The notes beneath the pieces are model-generated. The model was not told where the DNA came from. It did no database searches and saw only the letters and a program-made list of their open reading frames with translations. Both the position numbers and the translations under genes were made by a program. A stretch of DNA of 64,000 bases from Candidatus Omnitrophota bacterium (GTDB lineage Bacteria; Omnitrophota; Gorgyraeia; Gygaellales; Profunditerraquicolaceae), in the NCBI GenBank assembly GCA_026387335.1, contig JAPLLX010000007.1, forward strand, positions 243 through 64,242, read 5' to 3'. Each line of letters opens with the position of its first letter. Positions within the stretch are counted from its first letter, which is position 1. Below, piece by piece: positions 5,815-62,253 of the stretch.

Positions 5815-7005
5815 ATGAACTCAGAGTTAATGATAAGCTGGCGGTATTTGACCACTAAGAGAAAAGAAAAATTCATCTCTCTTATCAGTATCATCTCAAT
5901 TTTGGGGATAGCTATAGGAGTGATGGCTTTAATCATAGTTATCGCGGTTATGTCGGGTTTTGATAAGGACCTGCACGATAAGATAATCGGAAATTATTCA
6001 CACATTAATTTGACCGCTTTTAAGGCGATAGGGGATAGTGAATACGCGGTTATCGCCAAAAGCGTTTCCGCTAATCCGCACGTTATCGGAATAAGCCCTT
6101 ATATACAGGGACAGGTCTTATTGAAAGATAATAACCGCTATTTTGCCGTAGGATTAAAAGGGATCAACCCCGCGGCGGAAAGCAAAGTCACTAAAGTCAG
6201 GGAATATATAAAGCAGGGCAGTATTGATAATTTAGCGGAAGGCTCGATTATCGTCGGTAAAGAGTTAGCCGGATATTTAGGTTTAGAATTAAATTCTAAC
6301 CTTTCTCTGCAGTCGCCTTTAGGCAAACAATATACCCTGAAGGTCGCCGGGATCTTCAGTTCCGGGATGTATGATTACGACCTTAACCTGGTGTTTACGA
6401 ACTTAAAAACCGCGCAGGATATTTTTGGGCTGAATAACCAGATAACCAGCGTGGCCCTGAAACTGGATAATCCGGATTTAGCGGCTCAAATCAGGCAGGA
6501 ACTGGCTTTGGCATTAGGTTATAATTATAACCTAAAGACCTGGATGGAGGCGAACCAGAATTTCTTTGCGGCCTTAAAATTAGAAAAACTGACTATGTTT
6601 ATAATCTTGACTCTAATCATATTAGTCGCTTCATTTAATATCATCAGTACTCTCATAGTCATGGTGGTCGAGAAAACAAAAGATATCGGCGTATTAAGGG
6701 CGCTGGGGATGAGCGCTTTGAGCATAAGAAAGATATTTACTTATCAGGGTTTAATAATCGGGTCATTAGGGACATTGCTGGGGTCTTTTAGCGGAATACT
6801 TATATGTTTTTTGCTTAAAAAGTACCAATTTATAAAATTACCGCAGGATATATATTATATTGACCGCTTGCCTGTGATCATCCAGATTTGGCCGGATATG
6901 GTTTTAATCGTTGTGTCGGCTTTAGTCATAATTTTAGTGGCGACCATATATCCGGCGTCCCGGGCCAGCCGTTTAAAACCGGTAGAGGCATTAAGGTACG
7001 AATAG
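5815..7005 (+). CDS. lolC: Lipoprotein-releasing system permease LolC/LolE (FtsX/MacB family)
   Basis: N-terminal TM, periplasmic domain, C-terminal 3 TM, followed by LolD-type ATPase. Confidence 0.8.
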   Translation: MNSELMISWRYLTTKRKEKFISLISIISILGIAIGVMALIIVIAVMSGFDKDLHDKIIGNYSHINLTAFKAIGDSEYAVIAKSVSANPHVIGISPYIQGQVLLKDNNRYFAVGLKGINPAAESKVTKVREYIKQGSIDNLAEGSIIVGKELAGYLGLELNSNLSLQSPLGKQYTLKVAGIFSSGMYDYDLNLVFTNLKTAQDIFGLNNQITSVALKLDNPDLAAQIRQELALALGYNYNLKTWMEANQNFFAALKLEKLTMFIILTLIILVASFNIISTLIVMVVEKTKDIGVLRALGMSALSIRKIFTYQGLIIGSLGTLLGSFSGILICFLLKKYQFIKLPQDIYYIDRLPVIIQIWPDMVLIVVSALVIILVATIYPASRASRLKPVEALRYE

Positions 7006-7013
7006 GGATAGAT

Positions 7014-7676
7014 TTGTTAGAAGCTAAAAATATACATAAAGTTTATAATGACGGCAAGCGCGATCTTCCGGTCTTAAAAGGCGTAAACTTAAAGATTGAA
7101 GAAGGCGCCTTTATTGCCATTGTCGGCCCGTCAGGCGCAGGTAAGTCCACTTTATTGCATATATTGGGCGGCCTGGATTCTCCTACGCAGGGAGAAGTCG
7201 TTTTGGGCCAAGAAGATATTTATAAGCTTAGCGATGTAGAGCTTTCACGCATAAGAAATGAAAGAATAGGGTTTGTCTTTCAATTTTATCACCTGTTGGG
7301 CGAATTGTCGGTTTTAGAAAATGTCCTTATGCCTGCCTGGATAAGGGCAAAAGCCTCAGGTGATATAAACGCAAGGGCGCTTAAACTTATTGCTCAGGTA
7401 AATTTAACTGAAAGGCTAACGCATTTACCCGCGCAATTATCCGGCGGAGAAAAACAGAGAGTGGCTATCGCGCGCGGCTTGATGAATAAACCCAGCCTGC
7501 TTTTCTGCGATGAGCCGACAGGTAATCTTGATTCCAAGACGGGTACGGAGATCATTGCTTTAATAAAGAAAGCCAGCTTGGAAGATAAAATGACGGTGGT
7601 TTTAGTAACGCATAACGTGGAATTGACTAAAATTGCGGACAAGGTCTATAATTTAAAAGACGGAGTGTTAATTTAG
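7014..7676 (+). CDS. lolD: Lipoprotein-releasing ABC ATPase LolD (probable TTG start; listed ORF start 6888 overlaps lolC)
   Basis: Walker A GPSGAGKST, LSGGEKQR, CDEPTGNLD. TTG at 7014 begins LLEAKNIHKVY. Confidence 0.8.
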   Translation: MLEAKNIHKVYNDGKRDLPVLKGVNLKIEEGAFIAIVGPSGAGKSTLLHILGGLDSPTQGEVVLGQEDIYKLSDVELSRIRNERIGFVFQFYHLLGELSVLENVLMPAWIRAKASGDINARALKLIAQVNLTERLTHLPAQLSGGEKQRVAIARGLMNKPSLLFCDEPTGNLDSKTGTEIIALIKKASLEDKMTVVLVTHNVELTKIADKVYNLKDGVLI

Positions 7677-7684
7677 GAGGTAAA

Positions 7685-8554
7685 ATGAAAATTTATATCA
7701 ACGGGAAATTTTACGAAAAGAACGAAGCAAAAGTATCTGTGTTTGACCATGGCCTGCTTTACGGTGACGGAGTATTTGAAGGGATCCGTTCGTATAACCG
7801 CCTGGTTTTTAAATTAAGGGAGCATATTGACCGGTTATTTGAGTCAGCCAAGAGTATTATGCTTAATATCCCTCTTTCTAAAGAAGAATTGATCAAGGCA
7901 ACCGTTCTTACGCTAAAGAAGAATAACCTTAAGGATTCCTATATCCGCCTGGTGGTTACGCGCGGAGAAGGGGACTTAGGACTTGACCCGCGTAAATGCA
8001 ACGGTAACGCGACAATTATTATCATTACCGATAAAATCAACTTATATCCGGATAAATTTTATAAACAAGGCCTAAAGATTATTACTGTGCCGACGATCCG
8101 GAATCTGCCGGAGGCGTTAAACCCCCAGATCAAGTCTTTAAATTACCTCAATAATATTTTAGCCAAGATTGAGGCGACCAACGCCGGCTGCGATGAAGCG
8201 ATCATGCTGGATTCTTTAGGTTATGTGGCTGAATGCACCGGGGACAATATTTTTATTGTGAAAGATAAACATCTTTATACGCCTCCGCAATGCATGGGCA
8301 CGCTTAGAGGCATTACTCGCGACGCGGTTTTAGAAATCGCCCGCAAGGAGAAAACTCCGGCGCACGAACATGTGATTACGCGCCATGAAGTTTATATCTC
8401 CGATGAGTGTTTTCTTACCGGAACAGCCGCGGAGATCGTCCCCGTGGTCATGGTAGACGGAAGGGTGATTGGCGATGGTAAACCCGGAAAAGTGACCTCA
8501 GCGCTTTTAAAGAAATTCCGGGAACTCACTAAGAAAGAAGGGGTTAAATATTAA
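7685..8554 (+). CDS. ilvE: Branched-chain amino acid / D-amino acid aminotransferase (class IV)
   Basis: FEGIRSY motif and fold-type IV PLP pattern. Confidence 0.8.
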   Translation: MKIYINGKFYEKNEAKVSVFDHGLLYGDGVFEGIRSYNRLVFKLREHIDRLFESAKSIMLNIPLSKEELIKATVLTLKKNNLKDSYIRLVVTRGEGDLGLDPRKCNGNATIIIITDKINLYPDKFYKQGLKIITVPTIRNLPEALNPQIKSLNYLNNILAKIEATNAGCDEAIMLDSLGYVAECTGDNIFIVKDKHLYTPPQCMGTLRGITRDAVLEIARKEKTPAHEHVITRHEVYISDECFLTGTAAEIVPVVMVDGRVIGDGKPGKVTSALLKKFRELTKKEGVKY

Positions 8555-8555
8555 T

Positions 8556-9056
8556 ATGCTTTGCGATATTTGCGGTAAGAATCCGGCAACCGTGCATCTG
8601 ACCGAGATCCTTAATGACCAGATGACTGAGCTGCACCTGTGTGAAGAATGCGCCAAGCAAAAGAGTATGGCGATGGAGCAGCAGTTTGGCTTAAGCGACC
8701 TTTTGGCCGGTATGGCTGATTCTGATAAACAGGGCAACGAATCCGAGGCCCTGAAAAACCTTAAGTGCCCTAACTGCGGCCTGACCTACGCTGACTTTAA
8801 GAAAATAGGCAGGCTGGGTTGCAGCGCCTGTTACAATACTTTCAGCAGATATCTTGGACCTTTATTGAAACGGATCCATGGCTCAACGCAGCACACAGGA
8901 AAATCTCCGCTTAAAGTGACCAAGGCCTTGAAGAAAGAGATAGGCGTACAGGTATTACGTAACCAACTGCAAAAAGCGATCCAGGCCGAGGCGTTTGAAG
9001 AAGCAGCCAAGTTACGCGACCAGATAAAGGAAGCCGAGAAGAAAGAAGAGAAATAA
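8556..9056 (+). CDS. mcsA: Protein-arginine kinase activator McsA (zinc-ribbon + UVR domain)
   Basis: CDICG...CEEC, CPNCG...CSAC, C-terminal UVR EEAAKLRDQIKE. Confidence 0.8.
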   Translation: MLCDICGKNPATVHLTEILNDQMTELHLCEECAKQKSMAMEQQFGLSDLLAGMADSDKQGNESEALKNLKCPNCGLTYADFKKIGRLGCSACYNTFSRYLGPLLKRIHGSTQHTGKSPLKVTKALKKEIGVQVLRNQLQKAIQAEAFEEAAKLRDQIKEAEKKEEK

Positions 9057-9058
9057 AT

Positions 9059-10111
9059 ATGCAGTTAAACGATTTATTAAATCACACTAGCGAATGGCTT
9101 AAGGGAAGCGGGCCAAATTCGGATATTGTGATTTCCAGCCGCATACGCCTGGCGCGTAACCTGGATAAAGAGAATTTTCCGCATTGGGCCAACAAGTCTC
9201 AAGGCGCGACTGTTTTAAATATCATTAAAGAAGGCGTAGCTAAGGTGGATTATCTAAAACGCACGACATTTTTTAATTTGGCGGATATTGACAGCGTGGA
9301 TAAACAGTTTTTGGTCGAGCGGCATCTTATGTCGCTTGAGCAGGCCCAGAAGAGCGATAGCAAGGCGTTGGTAGTGGACGATGAAGAGATAGTCTCAATT
9401 ATGATTAATGAAGAAGACCATATCCGCATGCAGGTCATGCAATCCGGGTTTAATCTTTTTGAGGCCTGGAACATTATTAACGCGATTGATGATAATTTGG
9501 CTAGGGAGTTGAATTTCGCGTTTCTCTCTAATTGGGGCTACCTGACAGCCTGCCCTACCAATGCCGGGACAGGTATGCGCGGTTCAGTCATGCTACATCT
9601 TCCGGCGCTGGTCATGACCCGTTCAATTGAAAGGGTGATGGCCGCCATTGCCAAGCTTAGTTTTACCACCCGCGGGCTTTACGGCGAAGGAACGCAGGCA
9701 ATGGGGAACTTCTTTCAAATTTCTAACCAGATATCCTTGGGGCCAAGCGAAGGCGAGATTATTGAAAGCATAAACGGCCTGATCCGCCAGATCATTGAGC
9801 AGGAGAAACAAGCCAGAGAAAGCCTGCTTGCTAAAAACAGTCCGCTTCTGGAAGACAGGATCAACCGCAGCCTCGGTATCTTAAAGAGCGCCCGGATCAT
9901 CTCAAGCCAGGAGACAATAGAATTACTTTCAATGGTCAGGTTAGGATGCGACGCAGGAATTATTAAAGATATAGACCGTCGGGTCATCAACGAGTTATTT
10001 ATTATTACTCAGCCGGCGCACTTACAGAAATTAGAGAATAAAAAGATTTCCGCGCAGGAGCGGGATTTAAAGCGGGCGGAATTAATCCGGGACAAACTAA
10101 ATATTCATTAA
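9059..10111 (+). CDS. mcsB: Protein arginine kinase McsB (phosphagen kinase family)
   Basis: Active-site CPTNAGTGMR motif. Confidence 0.9.
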   Translation: MQLNDLLNHTSEWLKGSGPNSDIVISSRIRLARNLDKENFPHWANKSQGATVLNIIKEGVAKVDYLKRTTFFNLADIDSVDKQFLVERHLMSLEQAQKSDSKALVVDDEEIVSIMINEEDHIRMQVMQSGFNLFEAWNIINAIDDNLARELNFAFLSNWGYLTACPTNAGTGMRGSVMLHLPALVMTRSIERVMAAIAKLSFTTRGLYGEGTQAMGNFFQISNQISLGPSEGEIIESINGLIRQIIEQEKQARESLLAKNSPLLEDRINRSLGILKSARIISSQETIELLSMVRLGCDAGIIKDIDRRVINELFIITQPAHLQKLENKKISAQERDLKRAELIRDKLNIH

Positions 10112-55304: not shown

Positions 55305-55381
55305 GGTGGCTATAGCTCAATTGGTTAGAGCGTTAGACTGTGGCTCTAAAGGTTGCGGGTTCGATCCCCGTTAGCCACCCA
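55305..55381 (+). tRNA. tRNA-His (anticodon GUG) with encoded G-1
   Basis: Hand-folded: G-1 + GTGGCTA/TAGCCAC + C73, anticodon loop CTGTGGC. Confidence 0.85.
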
Positions 55382-55434: not shown

Positions 55435-55482
55435 AGAGCGTTAGACTGTGGCTCTAAAGGTTGCGGGATCGTTCTCCTCGCA
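55435..55482 (+). pseudogene. Degenerate partial duplicate of tRNA-His (D-arm 3' half through T-arm, acceptor arms missing)
   Basis: AGAGCGTTAGACTGTGGCTCTAAAGGTTGCGGG is identical to the tRNA-His internal segment, then mismatches begin. Confidence 0.55.
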
Positions 55483-55498
55483 TAACGGGATAGTTTAA

Positions 55499-55533
55499 GG
55501 CCTATGGTCTGAATTTAGATCATAGGCCTTTTT
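55499..55533 (+). terminator. Intrinsic terminator GGCCTATG...CATAGGCC-TTTTT
   Basis: Direct reading. Confidence 0.55.
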
Positions 55534-55550
55534 AAAAGGACAACTTTTAT

Positions 55551-57362
55551 ATGCTTAGATTGGGAAAACAGGTAGACCTCAAGATAATCATTACAATTGC
55601 CTCCATTTTAATTATAACTTTCTTTTCTTTTTATCCCTGCCTTAAAAATAATTTTACGAACTGGGACGACAATTCATATGTAACAAACAATACAAGCGTG
55701 CGTAATTTATCAACAGGCAATATAAGACGTATTTTTTCCTCTTTTTCTGTGGGCAATTATCAGCCCGCGGTTATCTTGTCCTATTTATTTGAATACCGCT
55801 TCTTTAAGTTGAAACCATTCGGGTATCATTTAACTAACCTTATACTGCACTTACTTAATTGTCTATTTGTGTTTTGGCTGTTTTATCTGCTTACCCGCAA
55901 GATCTCGGTTTCTTGGCTAACAGCCGTCCTCTTTGGCCTACACCCTTTACATGTGGAATCAGTCGCCTGGATCAGTGAGAGAAAAGACGTGCTTTACGCG
56001 TGTTTCTTCTTAGCTGCGCTTATTTGCTATTGTTATTACCTGCGGAAGGAAAAAATAGGAAAATATTATTATTCTTCTTTAATTTTATTTATTTTCTCTC
56101 TTCTATCAAAAGCAATGGCCATCACTTTGCCCGCCGTGCTGTTGCTTATAGATTATTTTTTGCATAGAAAGCGCAGTAAAACCGCGCTCCTGGATAAAAT
56201 TCCCTTCTTTATTCTCTCTTTTATATTCGGGATAATCGCTGCTATCGGCCAATACTCAAGCGGAGCCGTAAGGCAAGAGAGTTTACTTAATTTTGTGAAT
56301 AAAATCGCGGTTTCTAGCTACGGCATAATTTTTTATCTTAATAAAATATTAGTCCCGATCAAGCTTTCTTGTTTTTATCCTTATGCGGGAACAAAAGAAA
56401 TTTCCTTATTTCCCTATACTTTTATCACAGTTGTTATCCTGTTGGCCGCTGTAATTATTTCAAGTAAGCGCACAAGGAAAATTATTTTTGGCAGTTTTTT
56501 ATTTTTAATTACTATTTTACCCGTTTTACAATTTATACCAATAGGCAATATCATCGTTGCCGATCGTTATATTTATATCTCATCGTTAGGAATATTTTAT
56601 CTTATTTCCGAGGGGTTTATCTGGTTATGCGCTTTGAAAACAAAACACCTTTATTTTTTACAAAGTTTGATGATGTTGATAATTTTAACCGGCGCGCTAG
56701 GCATTTTGGCCACATTAACCTGGAAAAGATGCCAGGTCTGGAATAATAGTATAGTTTTGTGGAGTGATGTTTTGAAGAATTATCCTAATGAAGCGACTGC
56801 TTACAAAAACCGGGGAGTGGCCTACCGGGATCAAGGTAACTTTACGCAGGCCATCTCTGATTATAATCGGGCGATAGAACTTAATCCTAATGATGCCGAT
56901 CCTTACAACAACCGCGGAGTGGTCTACCGGGACCAGGGTAACTTTACGCAGGCAATCTCTGATTATAATAGGGCGATAGAACTTAAACCTAACTATGCCG
57001 ATGCTTACTACAACCGTGCCCTTGCTTATCAAGCCCAGGGTAGCCCCGCCCAGGCTATTTCTAATTTCAGTAAGGCCATTAAAATTGATTCCCATCTTGT
57101 TAAAGCTTACAACAACCGCGCGACAGCCTATGTTCAAGAAAAAAATTATGAACTGGCTTTATCCGATCTTAATAAGGCTATTGAAATTACCCCTAATGAT
57201 GGAGAGGTATTTTACAACCGGGCGGTAGTGCGTTTTTTAATGAAAGAATATGATAAGGCCTGGATGGATATTCATCGAGCAGAAGAATTGGGAGAAAAAG
57301 TAGACCCTAAGCTTATTGAATTGCTCCGGAAAGCCTCTAAAAACAAGGAATTGCCTCTCTAA
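55551..57362 (+). CDS. Polytopic membrane protein with C-terminal TPR repeats (DUF1736/PMT-like N-terminal domain?)
   Basis: ~10 TM helices then 6 or more TPRs (AYKNRGVAYRDQGNFTQAISDYNRAIELNP...). Confidence 0.6.
   Translation: MLRLGKQVDLKIIITIASILIITFFSFYPCLKNNFTNWDDNSYVTNNTSVRNLSTGNIRRIFSSFSVGNYQPAVILSYLFEYRFFKLKPFGYHLTNLILHLLNCLFVFWLFYLLTRKISVSWLTAVLFGLHPLHVESVAWISERKDVLYACFFLAALICYCYYLRKEKIGKYYYSSLILFIFSLLSKAMAITLPAVLLLIDYFLHRKRSKTALLDKIPFFILSFIFGIIAAIGQYSSGAVRQESLLNFVNKIAVSSYGIIFYLNKILVPIKLSCFYPYAGTKEISLFPYTFITVVILLAAVIISSKRTRKIIFGSFLFLITILPVLQFIPIGNIIVADRYIYISSLGIFYLISEGFIWLCALKTKHLYFLQSLMMLIILTGALGILATLTWKRCQVWNNSIVLWSDVLKNYPNEATAYKNRGVAYRDQGNFTQAISDYNRAIELNPNDADPYNNRGVVYRDQGNFTQAISDYNRAIELKPNYADAYYNRALAYQAQGSPAQAISNFSKAIKIDSHLVKAYNNRATAYVQEKNYELALSDLNKAIEITPNDGEVFYNRAVVRFLMKEYDKAWMDIHRAEELGEKVDPKLIELLRKASKNKELPL
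56791..56994 (+). repeat. Near-identical tandem 102-bp duplication encoding two TPR units
   Basis: Direct comparison of 56791..56892 with 56893..56994. Confidence 0.6.
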
Positions 57363-57443
57363 ACCCAGAATATTCTTGATATGAGGTATTGCGCATATAA
57401 TTAGGTTAATAAATTGAGAGAGACCCCAAAATTTTTTTAGATT

Positions 57444-57689
57444 ATGCCTTGGTCACTTTACATAGTTAAATGCCAAGATACATCCCTTTACACCGGCATC
57501 ACAACCGATATCCCCCGTCGGCTCAAAGAGCATAATGCCAAGAAGGGCGCGTTTTATACCAAGAATAAGATTCCGGTTGAGCTTGTGTACCAAGAGCCAA
57601 TGCGGAATCGCTCCGAAGCCCTTAAACGCGAATCCGCCATTAAGAAGCTGACAAGGAAACAAAAGCTGCAATTGTTACCCACTAAATAA
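57444..57689 (+). CDS. Small GIY-YIG nuclease-family protein (UPF0213/YhbQ-like)
   Basis: LYIVKCQDTSLYTGITTDIPRRLKEHN motif. Confidence 0.75.
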   Translation: MPWSLYIVKCQDTSLYTGITTDIPRRLKEHNAKKGAFYTKNKIPVELVYQEPMRNRSEALKRESAIKKLTRKQKLQLLPTK

Positions 57690-57738
57690 AATTCTGCGTT
57701 AGATTTTGCCACCTCCTCCGTCTATTTAAGTAGGGTAT

Positions 57739-58026
57739 ATGACTAATGCAATTTCGGTTGAAGTTATAGCTACAAAGATCTTAGAGATAAGAGGTAAAAA
57801 GGTTATGCTGGATAGCGATCTGGCTAAGCTTTATGGCGTAGAAACCAAAGTATTAATTCAGGCTGTAAGAAGAAATAAGGCGCGCTTCCCGCTCGACTTC
57901 ATGTATATACTCACAAGACAAGAGGTTATGAACTTGAGGTCACAAATTGTGACCTCAAGTTGGAGCGGGAGAAGAATTGAGTTATCTTCTTCGTTGTCAA
58001 GCCTACCCAAAAGTGCTATAATTTAA
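57739..58026 (+). CDS. ORF6N (KilA-N-like) domain protein, C-terminally truncated/degenerate
   Basis: IRGKKVMLDSDLAKLYGVETKVLIQAVRRNKARFPLDFMY...RSQIVTSSWSGRR. Family C-terminal region absent. Confidence 0.6.
   Translation: MTNAISVEVIATKILEIRGKKVMLDSDLAKLYGVETKVLIQAVRRNKARFPLDFMYILTRQEVMNLRSQIVTSSWSGRRIELSSSLSSLPKSAII
57995..58022 (+). promoter_or_regulatory. Strong promoter TTGTCA-N16-TGcTATAAT (extended -10) at the 3' end of the ORF6N gene
   Basis: Direct reading. Confidence 0.5.
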
Positions 58027-58042
58027 CAACTTAGGAGAAAAT

Positions 58043-58081
58043 ATGTCTTTAGCTGAGTTTGCGATCACCTTATATTTATAA
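58043..58081 (+). CDS. Candidate 12-codon leader peptide uORF (MSLAEFAITLYL) with strong SD
   Basis: aggagaaaatATG. Stop TAA 10 nt upstream of a terminator hairpin. Confidence 0.25.
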   Translation: MSLAEFAITLYL

Positions 58082-58090
58082 CTATATTTA

Positions 58091-58117
58091 ACCCAGCCAC
58101 GTAGACTGGGTTTTTTT
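58091..58117 (+). terminator. Hairpin ACCCAG-ccacgtaga-CTGGGT + T7 between the uORF and the MazG-like gene (attenuator candidate)
   Basis: Direct reading. Confidence 0.45.
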
Positions 58118-58142
58118 GTTTCACTTTAGAAAAGGAGTTTTG

Positions 58143-58490
58143 ATGAACGAAATGAAAGAAATTACTGAAAAAATCAAGAAATTTAGAGATGAGCGTGACT
58201 GGATGCAATTTCATGATCCTAAGAATATGGCTGTTTCAATAATACTCGAAGCTTCTGAGCTGCTTGAGCATTTTCAATGGAAAACTACCGAAGAAGTAGA
58301 AAGATATTCAAGGAAAAATCTCGCTGAGATTAAGGATGAAATTGCAGACATAGCCTTATATCTTTTTGAATTAGCCGATAATCTCGGTATCAATTTAATT
58401 GATGCGATGGATCAAAAACTTAAAAAAAATGAAATGAAATATCCGGTGGAAAAAGCTAAAGGAAAGCATACAAAATACAATAAGCTATGA
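58143..58490 (+). CDS. MazG-like nucleoside triphosphate pyrophosphohydrolase (small all-alpha NTP-PPase)
   Basis: ERDWMQFHDPKNMAVSIILEASELLEHFQW...EIADIALYLFELAD. SD aaaggag. ATGA overlap with next gene. Listed TTG start 58116 lies in the T-tract. Confidence 0.7.
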   Translation: MNEMKEITEKIKKFRDERDWMQFHDPKNMAVSIILEASELLEHFQWKTTEEVERYSRKNLAEIKDEIADIALYLFELADNLGINLIDAMDQKLKKNEMKYPVEKAKGKHTKYNKL

Positions 58491-60865
58491 GACTCTATGA
58501 GGGGTCAATCAAGGAATTTTCGGAAGACGTAATACATAATCGTATCGCAGATATATTAAAAGATAACTTTCTCGCCTACTATAGAAGACCACCCTCAGAA
58601 CCAGAATATCGTTCCTGGCAGCAGTCACTAAATTTCCTAAATAACGCATTCACGTATTCAGATTTATTGAATAATAAAATAATAGTGGAGTATGAATTAC
58701 CATATTCAACTCGGCGCATCGATGTGTTGGTGTTTGGGAAGAATAATTCAAATAAGGATAGTGTTGTTTTAATGGAGTTAAAGCAATGGTCTAATGAACA
58801 TGTCTATGATTGTGAAAATGAAGGTAATGTAATAATAGATTTTCTTGGTAAGAGAGAGGTAGCTCATCCTTGTTTACAAGTTGAAGGATATCATTTTGAT
58901 TTATTAGATTTTCTGTTGATTTTTAATAGTGATGACGCAGTGCAGCTAAATTCTTGCACATATTGTCACAATTATACTAAGCAAAAAGAAAACATACTCT
59001 CGCTCCCCAAATTCCATAAATTCACCAAGGCTTTTCCTCTGTTTCTCAAAGAAGATGTCAGAGAATTGGGCCTTTATTTGCAGGAGAGATTAAAGAATAG
59101 TGACGGGCTAGAAGTCTTTAGTCGTTTTTTAAATAGCCCTGTTCGACCTTCGAAAAGATTACTAGATCACACTGGCGATATGATTCATAAGCAGCAAATA
59201 TTTACGCTTATTGATGATCAAATCGCTGCTTATAATGCGATTATTAGCAAAGCTAAGCAGTTAACTAAGACAAGTACAAAGTCTATTATTGTTGTAAAGG
59301 GTGGTCCTGGAACAGGCAAGTCAGTAATTGCATTAGAAGTTATGGGCGAGCTGATGCGTCAGGGTAAGGTTGTATATCATGCTACCGGTTCATCCGCATT
59401 TACAAATACATTGAGAAAAATTGTTGGACGTAGAGCATCAAATCTCTTCAAATTCTTTTTTAACTTTACGCAGCACAAGGAGAACGAAATCGATGTTCTG
59501 ATATGCGATGAGGCCCATAGGATTAGGTCGGATAGCAATGATTATGGGGTGCCTTCTAAATTTAAATCAAAAAACCCTCAAATAGATGATCTTATAAGGC
59601 CCGCAAAGTTATCGATATTTTTTATAGATGAATTCCAGATTGTCCGTCCAAAGGAGATTGGTAGTGCTGAATTAATAAAAAGTTCAGCCGCTAAATTTGG
59701 CGTAAATGATAAAGACATTGTAGAATTCGAACTTAGGACGCAGTTCCGTTGTTCCGGGTCAGATGCATATTTACAGTGGTTAGACAAGCTACTGGAGATT
59801 AGAGAGTCTGATATAGATATTTTTGATGCAAAAATGGAGTTTAGAATTTTTGAAACTCCAGTAGATTTAAAAAGAGCAATTGATGAGAAAAATAGACACA
59901 AGGAGAATTTAGCTAGAATTGTTGCTGGTTTCTGTTGGAAATGGAGTGAACCGAATCCAGACGGTTCATTAGTAAAAGATGTTCAAATAGGTGACTTTCA
60001 AATGCCCTGGGAGAAGAAGGATGAATTTTGGAAGTGGGCTACTGATAAGAGTGGTATGGAGCAGGTTGGGACAGTCTATACAGCTCAAGGTTTTGAATTT
60101 GACTATATAGGTGTAATCTTTGGAGACGACCTCGTTTGGCGCAAAGATAAAGGTTGGATTAGTATTCCTGAGAATTCTTTTGATAAACAGGTTTTAAGAG
60201 GGAATCAAAAGCTAACTGATCATCTTAAACATGTTTATAGAGTGTTGATGTCGCGCGCTCATAAGGGAGTTTATTTGTATTTCATGGACAAAGAAACAGA
60301 AATGTTTTTTAGGACTAAGATTGAAAGCAGGGATGGCGCTTTGATGTTTTCTGATATTGTTAAAGAGGATGAAAAGCAGTCTAAAGAGCCAGTGCCGACG
60401 ATCCCGGAAAATCTGCAGTTTAGAGATTATCTCCCTATTTTATCACTTGAAGCGGTTGCAACGTCATTCGGTAAAGAAACACAGGTTGAACAAGAACCGA
60501 TTGGTTGGATCAAGGCCGATATCCCTAGAACTTTGAATAAAGACATGTTTGTTGCGAAAGTGGTAGGTAAGTCAATGGAACCGACTATTCCTGATGGAAG
60601 CTATTGCGTATTTCGCTTTGACAAAGGAGGGACCAGGAATGGATTAGCTGTCCTTGTGGAGTGTCATTTAATTTCTGACCCTGAAACGACGAGGCAGTTT
60701 ACAATAAAGCGGTATAAAAGCGAGAAAGAATATTTTGACGATGGGACATGGAGACATAAGAAAATAATTCTTTCTCCTGATAATAATGATTTTAAAGATA
60801 TCGTTTTGGAAGATGTGCCCGCTATCGAATTTCGAGTTGTAGCGGAGTTTATGTGTGTTTTATAA
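58487..60865 (+). CDS. Multidomain defense-like protein: PD-(D/E)xK nuclease motif + DUF2075/Schlafen-Nhi-like DEAH ATPase + C-terminal LexA/S24-type Ser-Lys peptidase domain
   Basis: E68/D79/E97-x-K99 (VEYE...RIDVLVF...VVLMELKQW). Walker A GGPGTGKS (aa 272-279) and Walker B VLICDEAHRI. C-terminal VGKSMEPTIPDGSYCVF...FTIKRY preceded by LEAVATSFG. Confidence 0.7.
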   Translation: MRLYEGSIKEFSEDVIHNRIADILKDNFLAYYRRPPSEPEYRSWQQSLNFLNNAFTYSDLLNNKIIVEYELPYSTRRIDVLVFGKNNSNKDSVVLMELKQWSNEHVYDCENEGNVIIDFLGKREVAHPCLQVEGYHFDLLDFLLIFNSDDAVQLNSCTYCHNYTKQKENILSLPKFHKFTKAFPLFLKEDVRELGLYLQERLKNSDGLEVFSRFLNSPVRPSKRLLDHTGDMIHKQQIFTLIDDQIAAYNAIISKAKQLTKTSTKSIIVVKGGPGTGKSVIALEVMGELMRQGKVVYHATGSSAFTNTLRKIVGRRASNLFKFFFNFTQHKENEIDVLICDEAHRIRSDSNDYGVPSKFKSKNPQIDDLIRPAKLSIFFIDEFQIVRPKEIGSAELIKSSAAKFGVNDKDIVEFELRTQFRCSGSDAYLQWLDKLLEIRESDIDIFDAKMEFRIFETPVDLKRAIDEKNRHKENLARIVAGFCWKWSEPNPDGSLVKDVQIGDFQMPWEKKDEFWKWATDKSGMEQVGTVYTAQGFEFDYIGVIFGDDLVWRKDKGWISIPENSFDKQVLRGNQKLTDHLKHVYRVLMSRAHKGVYLYFMDKETEMFFRTKIESRDGALMFSDIVKEDEKQSKEPVPTIPENLQFRDYLPILSLEAVATSFGKETQVEQEPIGWIKADIPRTLNKDMFVAKVVGKSMEPTIPDGSYCVFRFDKGGTRNGLAVLVECHLISDPETTRQFTIKRYKSEKEYFDDGTWRHKKIILSPDNNDFKDIVLEDVPAIEFRVVAEFMCVL

Positions 60866-60875
60866 TTTCTAAATA

Positions 60876-61571
60876 ATGTTTAAAGCCGGTGATGTAATTT
60901 CATACATTGAAATGTGCCAAGAAGAAGGTATAAGTCTTCAAAGAGGAATGAACTTTCGACTTAAAGGAAGACACAGTGTAATATTGATGAGTCTCAGACG
61001 CAATGCTCCATATGCTGATAAGGTTGAAGATAATGGCAAGACATTAATATACGAAGGTCATGATATCCCTCGGTTTAATAGAGCTCAAGATTCAAAGCTG
61101 GTTTCTCAACAAATGCAGAATCCCGGAGGTAGTTTAACTCAGAATGGGTTTTTTTATAAAGCAGCGCATGATTACAAAAATAAGAAGTCTGATGCAGAGC
61201 TAGTCAAGGTATATGAAAAAATTCATTCAGGAATATGGGCTTATAACGGTTTATTTAAACTAGTTGATTCGTGGCAAGAAGAATCGAATAAAAGAAAAGT
61301 ATTTAAATTCAGACTTGAAATAGATAAAATAAATTCTAAGGGCAAACAGCCAGAAAATTTTGATTTGGATCGTAACAGATTAATACCTGCATCTGTAAAG
61401 CTAGCGGTTTGGAAGAGGGATAAGGGGAAGTGTACTAAATGCGGCAGCCCTGATAATTTACATTTCGACCACATAATTCCTTATTCAAAAGGCGGGTCTT
61501 CTTTAGTTGCAGAAAACATTCAGTTGTTATGCGCAAGACATAATATTGAAAAGCGAGATAGGATTGAATAA
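60876..61571 (+). CDS. SRA/PUA-like N-terminal domain + C-terminal HNH endonuclease (type IV restriction-like architecture)
   Basis: HNH motif CTKCGSPDNLHFDHIIPYSKGGSSLVAENIQLLCARHN. N-terminus EEGISLQRGMNFRLKGRHSVILMS...KVEDNGKTLIYEGHD resembles the SRA/YDG core. Confidence 0.6.
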   Translation: MFKAGDVISYIEMCQEEGISLQRGMNFRLKGRHSVILMSLRRNAPYADKVEDNGKTLIYEGHDIPRFNRAQDSKLVSQQMQNPGGSLTQNGFFYKAAHDYKNKKSDAELVKVYEKIHSGIWAYNGLFKLVDSWQEESNKRKVFKFRLEIDKINSKGKQPENFDLDRNRLIPASVKLAVWKRDKGKCTKCGSPDNLHFDHIIPYSKGGSSLVAENIQLLCARHNIEKRDRIE

Positions 61572-61657
61572 AGGTTATGAGATGGATAGCGCCGCTTCTA
61601 ATTTTTAGGAAGTAGAAATGCCAATAAAACTAGGGGATGCTTCGGGGGTTTTAAGAT

Positions 61658-62017
61658 ATGTTTGAACAGAAACATCAAAAAATAGCTCCGGTTTCGGTAT
61701 TCATAAGAAGAGTGGCTGTATATATTGGAATCGCCATTCTGGTGATTTTAATCGCCCTGTTCATTGGGGTTGCCGGATATCATTGGATAGCTGGTTTTAG
61801 TTGGGTTGATTCATTGCTAAATGCGTCTATGATCCTGGGTGGCATGGGTCCGGTAAACCTGTTGAGTAATGCAAGCGCAAAAGTATTCGCCTCCCTGTAC
61901 GCGCTTTTCAGCGGTCTTGTATTTATTGCCGTAATGGGAATAGTTTTTACGCCAATCGTGCATAGAATGCTCCATAAATTTCATATGGATGAAAAAGATT
62001 TAAAGGGTTCGATATAA
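61658..62017 (+). CDS. Small 2-3 TM membrane protein, hypothetical
   Basis: Hydrophobic helices. Last gene of the low-GC island. Confidence 0.35.
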   Translation: MFEQKHQKIAPVSVFIRRVAVYIGIAILVILIALFIGVAGYHWIAGFSWVDSLLNASMILGGMGPVNLLSNASAKVFASLYALFSGLVFIAVMGIVFTPIVHRMLHKFHMDEKDLKGSI

Positions 62018-62023
62018 AGAGGG

Positions 62024-62051
62024 GAAATAATACTTGACAAATAGAGAACAA
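62024..62051 (+). promoter_or_regulatory. Consensus promoter TTGACA-N16-TATACT heading a ~200-nt leader with tandem terminators
   Basis: Direct reading. Near-identical to the 41204 promoter. Confidence 0.45.
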
Positions 62052-62092
62052 GTGTTATACTTTTAATAACAGCGATGTTAAAGAGGCACAGA

Positions 62093-62125
62093 AGCCCCAA
62101 AAATGTTTTGGGGTTTTTTCATTTT
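62093..62125 (+). terminator. Intrinsic terminator GCCCCAAAA-atg-TTTTGGGG-TTTTTT in the leader. Two further hairpin+T-tracts follow at about 62137..62175 and 62190..62237.
   Basis: Direct reading. Confidence 0.5.
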
Positions 62126-62253
62126 TAAGGACAAGGACGCCCTTTTTAAGGCAAAAACGCTTTGAAAGGGGCTTATTTTTTATAGACGATGGCGTCTTAA
62201 ATCCAGCGATGGATCAACGACGCCTTTTTTGTTTAGGCGGGAAAAGGGGATAA

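Follow-up and report, generated by a model that had tools for sequence, protein, structure and literature searches.

A 64,000-nucleotide (64-kb) stretch of contig JAPLLX010000007.1 from a Candidatus Omnitrophota bacterium (hereafter the window, whose own numbering is used throughout) carries, at positions 57675-62024, a strain-specific, compositionally foreign and horizontally acquired insert. We read this block as cargo that carries a modular candidate anti-phage operon, and we give that reading a probability of about 0.62. Its core would be a MazG-like pyrophosphohydrolase gene coupled to the gene of a nuclease-helicase similar to the anti-phage enzyme Nhi, with two further parts, an S24 autopeptidase tail on the nuclease-helicase and a downstream SRA-HNH endonuclease gene. 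A defence role is the best reading of the locus; from domain identities, motif conservation, gene linkage and mobility, which are observed directly, we infer the biochemical activities and the anti-phage phenotype. The material searched comprised the open reading frames (ORFs) of the window, Pfam, PADLOC-DB 2.0, NCBIfam, Rfam, ARAGORN, AlphaFold models, Foldseek and blastn.

The acquired block and its conserved gene pair

At a guanine-cytosine (GC) content of 0.370, the 4350-bp block marks the GC minimum of the window; the 1067 windows of equal size taken from the rest of the 64 kb all have higher values (minimum 0.393, mean 0.431, standard deviation 0.015). GC at third codon positions (GC3) is 0.29 in the MazG-like gene, 0.33 in the nuclease-helicase gene and 0.28 in the SRA-HNH gene, against 0.40-0.54 in flanking genes; it is 0.47 in the downstream outer membrane protein (OMP) gene, 0.54 in a small GIY-YIG gene and 0.40 in TM119, a gene inside the block for a hydrophobic protein. 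A first-pass annotation, made from the sequence alone, had placed a low-GC island here with its onset near 57.4 kb. The composition check does set the block apart, but the drop begins only at about 57.75 kb; the GIY-YIG gene has a GC of 0.455, and the TPR gene upstream of it is itself AT-rich (0.379).

The edges of the block were defined by comparison with orthologous loci, found through the downstream OMP gene. Among the 36 metagenome loci examined, only two, on the long contigs L099 and L100, have the TPR-GIY-YIG left flank in common with the window. Positions 55470-57674, which span the TPR gene and nearly all of the GIY-YIG gene, align with L099 at 94.9% nucleotide identity, and the alignment picks up again at 62025 with 81-83% identity (both by blastn). 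Between the same flanks L099 has 2959 bp of unrelated genes in place of the 4350-bp block. Given these breakpoints and the unrelated genes, the window-specific block is 57675-62024 and the spot, a replacement hotspot, holds alternative cargo. The comparison bore out the idea that the block was inserted or replaced between the TPR side and the OMP side, though only one relative lineage, that of L099 and L100, documents this history.

Three genes of the block, all on the forward strand, are tightly linked: the MazG-like gene (58143-58490, 115 amino acids, aa), the nuclease-helicase-peptidase gene (58487-60865, 792 aa) and the SRA-HNH gene (60876-61571, 231 aa). The first two overlap as ATGA (58487-58490) and the third follows after a gap of 10 nucleotides (nt; 60866-60875). 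Gene order, coordinates, overlap and gap were all reproduced from the ORF list, and every domain call of the first-pass annotation was confirmed by Pfam, with SAD_SRA falling just under its cutoff. The MazG-like gene most likely starts at ATG 58143 rather than at TTG 58116, because a GGAG lies 6 nt in front of this ATG and the resulting 115 aa is the length found in all relatives.

The MazG-like protein scores 72 bits against PF12643 (cutoff 27, E 5e-20) and matches the structures 4qgp (5e-25) and DCTPP1 6sqw (1.4e-18) over its full length. Its acidic motifs, of the form ExxE...ExxD, align as EASE and DEIAD with EVGE and EELSD of DCTPP1. By sequence it is a clear homolog of DCTPP1/RS21-C6 and a predicted (d)NTP pyrophosphatase. 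Enzymes of the DCTPP1 family are sanitisers of the nucleotide pool, and DCTPP1 hydrolyses deoxycytidine triphosphate (dCTP) and 5-modified dCTPs. DCTPP1/RS21-C6 and 4QGP are stand-alone house-cleaning enzymes, whereas the MazG-like gene of the window lies on mobile DNA, in translational coupling with that of a nuclease-helicase.

The 792-aa protein is laid out as a PD-(D/E)xK/NERD-like region (residues 1-215), a DUF2075 superfamily 1B (SF1B) helicase (240-610), a disordered linker (611-632) and the S24 module (641-792). Profile searches could have returned a housekeeping helicase lacking S24 and nuclease domains; instead S24 scores above its cutoff and the helicase is of the DUF2075/SLFN-g3 family (PF09848, 1e-83, residues 265-601). 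In a 20-sequence alignment E68, D79, E97, K99, the Walker A motif GGPGTGKS (272-279) and the DEAH box (341-344) are invariant. The AlphaFold model (mean predicted local distance difference test score, pLDDT, 79.5) has an alpha/beta N-terminal domain in which D79 lies on one predicted strand (78-85) and E97 and K99 on the adjacent one (91-99), and Foldseek searches with it found SLFN11, RecD2, Dna2 and Dda, which are SF1B helicases. A sequence search of the Protein Data Bank (PDB) with the protein and with the 20-sequence profile gave no useful match, the comparison by fold being the sole informative one, and NCBIfam gave noise-level matches only.

Proteins of this kind are common. A word-indexed search scored 8000 candidates and returned 6983 homologs at E<=0.001; among the best 120 of these 6983, many are full-length (783-811 aa, 55-91% identity) and carry both PF09848 and PF00717, and their source names include Omnitrophota, Syntrophaceae, Nitrospira and Elusimicrobiota. 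The S24-bearing enzyme, which had looked like a one-off, therefore has abundant full-length homologs, and the same S24 subtype is found on many restriction enzymes (see below). Versions of about 615 aa, without the S24 tail, stop right after an FMDKxTE motif.

How far these genes travel together was surveyed in 80 loci from GTDB species representatives, 75 of which have room to see the upstream gene. A MazG-like gene lies immediately upstream of the DUF2075 gene in 59 of these 75, and the pair occurs in Omnitrophota, Nitrospirota, Patescibacteria (the candidate phyla radiation, CPR), Pseudomonadota, Bacillota including Parageobacillus, Woesearchaeota, Methanosarcinales, Thermoplasmata and others. 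Homologs from cultured hosts include the pairs of Priestia aryabhattai (plasmid NZ_CP083270) and Parageobacillus caldoxylosilyticus NBRC 107762. Of the 80 loci, 22 have an S24 tail, and all 22 are labelled bacterial. The patchy distribution, the 50-67% identity between bacterial and archaeal copies and the placing of the window protein's nearest relatives (83-91% identity) in unrelated genomic neighbourhoods all point to horizontal spread. Of the multi-gene system proposed in the first-pass annotation, the MazG-DUF2075 core stands as a linked pair, but the four genes are not a fixed unit: by gene linkage, the conserved unit is the pair, with the S24 tail and SRA-HNH as options.

Comparison with known systems places the window protein near Nhi, the PD-(D/E)xK plus DUF2075 anti-phage enzyme of Staphylococcus epidermidis (SERP2475), which works as a dimer (10.1101/776245); Nhi-like defence is also treated by Millman et al. 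(10.1101/2022.05.11.491447), and PF09848 serves as a marker of abortive infection (Abi) (PMC10121019). With Nhi and AbiO the window protein has in common a DUF2075 SF1B helicase, horizontal spread and frequent proximity to defence genes, and in it, too, a PD-(D/E)xK nuclease is predicted ahead of the helicase. Nhi is a single gene, however, while here the MazG-like partner is conserved, and the C-terminus is glyoxalase-like in Nhi but a LexA-type S24 domain in the window protein. The PADLOC Nhi profile gives 45 bits over profile positions 109-375 of 470 and covers residues 155-470 only; because the match is partial, the window protein belongs to a different DUF2075 subfamily, a relative of Nhi and AbiO outside their profiles. 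Likeness to Gabija (a nuclease plus a nucleotide-hydrolysing helicase) and to depletion by dCTP deaminase or dGTPase, in that attack on DNA is joined to control over nucleotide pools, would be a functional analogy only, with no homology. No paper linking DUF2075 with MazG, or MazG with Schlafen and phage, was found in the full-text literature (limited open-access coverage, so novelty is unproven), and among the literature matches listed for S24 with DUF2075, or for S24/LexA-like domains with restriction endonucleases, nothing was relevant (again limited open-access coverage). The parts are of known kinds; the conserved MazG-DUF2075 pairing and the S24 fusion appear to be undescribed.

Several variants of the locus were seen along the way. 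RadC, MazG, DUF2075 (without S24) and SRA-HNH genes form operons with gaps of <=16 nt in gammaproteobacterial metagenome-assembled genomes (MAGs; L026, L034 and L035), and RadC also precedes MazG in a Doudnabacteria locus (L025). A second DUF2075 paralog with a different N-terminus often adjoins the first (L014, L015, L017, L079 and the Hymenobacter plasmid L134); it is 658-664 aa long in the MAG loci. One Omnitrophota contig (L019/L020) has two S24-bearing copies about 17.7 kb apart. In several independent samples (the P0123 context, ENA ERZ1426817 and others) the DUF2075-S24 gene is split into ORFs of 396 and 392 aa, still between MazG and SRA-HNH and next to SIR2 and PDDEXK_1 genes, with genes for LexA and a Y-family polymerase about 3-4 kb downstream; either a pseudogene or programmed splitting could account for this. 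Two phage or phage-like records, PP438423.1 (Microcystis phage Mwe-JY31) and MT836681.1, also encode homologs that lack S24 (32-36% identity over 77% of the query).

The SRA-HNH gene and its swappable slot

The third gene of the operon encodes a protein with an HNH domain (PF01844, 5e-9) and an SRA-like region (SAD_SRA, 7e-7, 29.6 bits against a cutoff of 30.7). The HNH/zinc motif reads CxxC...HxDH...N...HN, and C186, C189, H196, D198, H199, N214, C219, H222 and N223 are invariant in 27 SRA-HNH sequences. In sequence the protein is only marginally similar to SRA proteins of solved structure. The AlphaFold 2 model has a mean pLDDT of only 72; its best PDB match by Foldseek is TagI (6ghs, 3.4e-9), and compared with the SRA domain of SUVH5 it reaches a target-normalised template modelling score of 0.62-0.66. 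No methyltransferase was found within 55.4-63 kb. An SRA-like reader followed by a C-terminal zinc-ribbon HNH domain, with no methyltransferase partner, is also the plan of TagI (6GHS) and ScoMcrA (PMC6765204). The window gene differs from TagI in being operonic with a helicase-nuclease, as well as in its marginal similarity to the solved proteins. On motif and model, the protein is a TagI-like candidate for type IV, modification-dependent restriction.

Whether this gene belongs to the same system as its neighbours is a separate question. A homolog adjoins DUF2075 in 8 of the 80 loci, in bacteria and archaea and with S24-bearing as well as S24-less forms, and it is usually immediately downstream: overlapping, abutting or within 15 nt of the DUF2075 gene (the overlap is 4 nt in L019, L026 and L045; the genes abut in L057). 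Elsewhere, the ORF tightly linked on the downstream side encodes HNH_5, HNH_2, Mrr_cat, DUF1697 or a second DUF2075 paralog. In L005 the downstream gene is of the AF_1447 family and is followed by DpnI (two genes on), with HNH_2 further away; on a Priestia plasmid (L135) an MrcB_N (DUF3578) gene overlaps the start of MazG in a region rich in restriction-modification (RM) and Abi genes. Modification-dependent enzymes next to DUF2075 NTPases have been noted before, McaZI among them (PMC6765204).

These genes could instead be independent tenants of a defence or mobile hotspot, with MazG-DUF2075 as one unit, SRA-HNH as another and their adjacency due to the clustering of defence islands. SRA-HNH does occur without the pair, after a helix-turn-helix (HTH) gene and beside a NotI-type RM system; it forms a very large family that is itself conserved; and 72 of the 80 DUF2075 loci lack it, so that its presence here could be mere co-location. 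Against this stand the 10-nt gap in the window and the overlaps or abutment elsewhere, the recurrence of the adjacency in both domains of life and with both forms of the enzyme, the same link in the literature for McaZI, and the fact that a slot without SRA-HNH often holds another nuclease typical of type IV systems. On balance we consider fully independent tenancy unlikely. What the occurrence of SRA-HNH alone beside a NotI-type system does suggest is that SRA-HNH is an autonomous type IV-like module that has been recruited recurrently to a swappable nuclease slot.

The S24 module, the proposed mechanism and the weight of the evidence

The S24 module, including the strand with the cleavage site, is encoded at 60407-60862. 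Pfam assigns Peptidase_S24 to residues 679-783 (1.3e-6, 28.5 bits against a cutoff of 23.3). The catalytic residues would be Ser696 (codon 60572-60574), in GKSMEP, and Lys741 (codon 60707-60709), in TIKRY, and the putative scissile bond is A658-T659 (codons 60458-60463). Segment 641-660, with its LexA-like cleavage strand, is modelled confidently (pLDDT 80-89) and is followed by the beta-rich S24 core. Like LexA, UmuD and lambda CI, the protein has a Ser-Lys dyad (GxSMxP...K-R), an Ala-Gly-type strand before the core and a flexible linker; unlike them, it has no HTH, its cargo is an enzyme and its site is Ala-Thr.

The company that this S24 subtype keeps was examined by searching residues 641-792 against 1.84 billion representatives, which gave 1470 matches at E<=1e-3 (800 at E<=1e-10). 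In most of the matches listed the similarity extends to the C-terminus of the protein, and the proteins range from 106 to 1878 aa. Pfam scans of 64 matches of at least 300 aa found as partners ResIII (14), Type_ISP_C (11), DUF2075 (10), Eco57I methylase (5), DEAD, MZB and N6_Mtase (4 each), SNF2 (3), AlwI, HsdS (Methylase_S), HNH_4 and GIY-YIG (2 each), and LlaJI, MmeI, RE_endonuc, HSDR_N, PLD and McrBC (1 each). The 25 commonest partner families include no HTH or LexA DNA-binding family, and in the window protein the N-terminal part is likewise a nuclease-helicase with no HTH repressor domain. By its partners, this S24 subtype appears to be associated with restriction and defence rather than with repressors. 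In 125 aligned modules the serine is kept in 123 and the lysine in 124, and the site upstream of the core reads AAAG in 68, AACG in 20 and VAAG in 9; on this conservation the subtype appears catalytically competent.

The activities of the operon may be pictured as follows. By analogy with Nhi, the nuclease-helicase would load on the ends or replication intermediates of phage DNA and degrade them. The pyrophosphatase, by analogy with DCTPP1, would remove dCTP or 5-modified dCTP, so that replication would be starved or salvaged modified nucleotides would be kept out of host DNA. SRA-HNH would cut phage DNA with modifications of the 5-methylcytosine or 5-hydroxymethylcytosine (5mC/5hmC) type and could feed ends to the helicase-nuclease. 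Self-cleavage of S24 would couple the enzyme to DNA damage through RecA filaments on single-stranded DNA. Our preferred direction for this coupling is an off-switch: cleavage would leave an Ala-Ala-Ala C-terminus (Ala-Val-Ala in the window protein) resembling a ClpX degron, and the enzyme would be removed during the SOS response, a form of restriction alleviation in cis. This direction is favoured because cleavage of LexA exposes a VAA end that ClpXP recognises, which the cleaved ...AAA end resembles. In Escherichia coli restriction alleviation acts in trans, through ClpXP proteolysis of HsdR; the comparison with ClpXP-dependent alleviation of EcoKI is an analogy, in that restriction would be shut down during DNA damage, and involves no homology. 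In the opposite direction, cleavage would activate a zymogen.

A broader proposal is that the S24 subtype is a portable, DNA-damage-coupled switch, for self-destruction or release, on many DNA-attacking enzymes (Type ISP, MmeI-like, AlwI, LlaJI, HsdS, SNF2/ResIII helicase-nucleases and the DUF2075 nuclease-helicase), and that MazG plus DUF2075 is a new two-gene defence system. For self-destruction, cleavage at the conserved AAA|G site would uncover an ssrA/LexA-like degron during SOS; as a release mechanism, it might free an auto-inhibited enzyme when phage replication produces RecA filaments. We put this proposal forward tentatively, as one that has somewhat less than an even chance of proving correct.

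Several observations weigh against the defence operon as we picture it, in addition to the solitary SRA-HNH genes and possible co-location described above. No system in PADLOC-DB 2.0 matches, which agrees with the first-pass remark that the combination is unlike any recognised system; the MazG-like protein matches none of its models, DUF2075 has only weak partial matches to PDC-S41, AbiO (2e-13) and Nhi (1e-12), which nevertheless count in favour of a defence link, and SRA-HNH has weak REase_II matches. The N-terminal PD-(D/E)xK nuclease is a prediction from motif and topology, and its sole profile match, to NERD, has an E of 0.014, under threshold. A census of the 150 genes nearest to the module is very heterogeneous, with 127 Pfam families and only RadC, PDDEXK_1, HNH and Bro-N recurring; this census, which has no baseline, does not demonstrate enrichment of the classical defence-island kind, and support for a defence context comes from examples only (Fic, AbiEii, DpnI, MazEF, ParE, type I RM and SIR2). 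Homologs of about 615 aa without S24 occur widely in nature, and on that account the cleaved product may be active rather than destroyed. Finally, the window site reads AVA/T, with threonine in place of glycine after the scissile alanine, and in LexA changes at the glycine of the scissile site block cleavage.

This last point raises the possibility that the S24 domain of the window protein does not cleave itself and serves as a dimerisation or scaffold domain, or as a protease acting in trans, after a P1' change from Gly to Thr. P1' is Gly in 107 of the 125 modules; moreover the C-terminal domain of LexA is also a dimer interface. Nhi, too, works as a dimer (10.1101/776245). On the other side, the 17 of 125 modules with Thr or Ser at P1' form a subclade on varied partners (RE_endonuc in P0246, Type ISP in P0248, AlwI in P0254, and DUF2075), and with a single exception they retain GxSMEP and the lysine, which suggests that catalysis has been retained in these variants. 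A non-cleaving S24 seems to us rather unlikely, if less so than independent tenancy.

A second alternative is that the genes are a housekeeping unit for DNA damage and the nucleotide pool that travels on mobile DNA as fitness cargo: MazG would clear non-canonical dNTPs, the nuclease-helicase would process damaged forks and S24 would provide the tie to the SOS response. This would suit the pool-sanitising role of the DCTPP1 family and the fold of S24, that of an SOS sensor; RadC is the commonest other neighbour (6 of 150), and in one relative LexA and Y-family polymerase genes lie about 3-4 kb downstream of the module. The patchy distribution, the horizontal transfer and the different loci of the closest relatives argue the other way, as do the same S24 subtype on bona fide restriction enzymes, the type IV-like nuclease partners, and the toxin-antitoxin, RM and Abi genes nearby. 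We regard a housekeeping role as improbable, and retain a mobile defence operon as the preferred reading.

Neighbouring features and what the module would mean

To the left of the block lie a tRNA-His (GTG) gene at 55306-55380 (ARAGORN; Rfam tRNA, 70.7 bits), which serves here as context only, a pseudo-tRNA at 55435-55467 that is an exact 33-nt copy of 55327-55359, and the TPR membrane-protein gene at 55551-57362, a backbone gene whose product is 96% identical in L099; all are on the forward strand. A search of the window DNA for the tRNA fragment found two matches where none is expected and no third copy. The copies are 108 nt apart from start to start, the second beginning 55 nt after the tRNA, and neither is at the far end of the block. 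The proposed tie between the island and the tRNA-His locus is accordingly real as to the pseudo-tRNA and indirect otherwise: the partial duplicate lies 2.2 kb upstream, no integrase is found among the window ORFs that lie outside longer annotated genes, all of which have been assigned, and the block ends have no att-type direct repeats beyond chance-size matches. The absent integrase and the absent repeats speak against a tRNA-integrated island with flanking att repeats; the pseudo-tRNA may still be an old integration scar, though 2.2 kb from the block. Homology to L099 begins directly after the pseudo-tRNA, at 55470, and L099 has no tRNA there; the TPR-GIY-YIG segment may itself have moved. 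In L099 the interval that replaces the block (6105-9063) encodes proteins of 186 aa, 275 aa (OMP-like) and 467 aa (a transporter-like membrane protein), and an additional 174-aa sigma-factor-like ORF (9293-9817) precedes the OMP gene.

The small GIY-YIG gene (57444-57689, forward strand, 81 aa; Pfam 2e-18, 91% identical in L099/L100) had been counted as an island gene, and belongs to the backbone: L099 has the gene but not the cargo, and the GC3 of 0.54 is like that of the backbone. The junction with the variable block falls within this gene, 15 nt short of the stop codon. Homologs recur elsewhere: in L001-L003 (at about 1200-1990; 72% identity) and L013 (6984-7223; 49%) a small GIY-YIG gene precedes MazG by 300-430 nt. 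There are hints that GIY-YIG genes may mark the module, help to move it or promote the junction. Inside the block, an ORF6N/KilA-N-type gene at 57739-58026 (forward strand, 95 aa; Pfam ORF6N 5e-25) is a truncated remnant that matches profiles of 177-306 positions in their N-terminal part only, as it does for PADLOC PDC-S05. Within it, at 57931-57961, is a perfect inverted repeat of 15 + 15 nt with a 1-nt spacer (AACTTGAGGTCACAA T TTGTGACCTCAAGTT).

The leader region (57994-58117, forward strand) contains the elements that the first-pass annotation had read there: a sigma-70-like promoter at 57994-58022 (11 of 12 matches, TG-extended), an upstream ORF of 12 codons at 58043-58081 preceded by AGGAG (58033-58037), and a hairpin plus U7 at 58090-58117, directly before the MazG ribosome-binding site. 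They are neither conserved nor structurally exceptional. The corresponding sequences of seven relatives fail to align (mean column identity 45%), the leader fold has a z-score of 0.09 against shuffled sequence and no Rfam family matched, so that a conserved attenuator is rejected; a simple insulating terminator before MazG is possible. One relative, L079, has a similar hairpin plus U-tract before the MazG ribosome-binding site (at about 420-450). The only good promoter lies upstream of the hairpin, so that the operon would need read-through. At the other end of the block, the ORF for a 119-aa hydrophobic protein (TM119) is indeed present after SRA-HNH (61658-62017, forward strand), but nothing links it to the system: it has no homologs in 138 related loci and no family in Pfam, PADLOC or NCBIfam, and as a component it is unsupported. 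Two terminator-like hairpins (62090-62118 and 62139-62172, forward strand) lie in the right flank, common with L099.

DUF2075 (Schlafen-type) nuclease-helicases are known anti-phage effectors, and with a conserved pyrophosphatase as partner, DNA degradation would be linked to control of the nucleotide pool. The pair ranges over bacteria and archaea and extends to lineages with tiny genomes (CPR and DPANN). Its recurrent coupling to nucleases that depend on modified DNA suggests that the module may be aimed at phages with modified cytosines. Restriction enzymes need restraint while the host chromosome is damaged or under repair, and the S24 fusion would be a cis-acting solution to this problem; it might also be useful as a damage-responsive protein switch. 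The S24 add-on to restriction enzymes is the broader lead, and would be significant if true.

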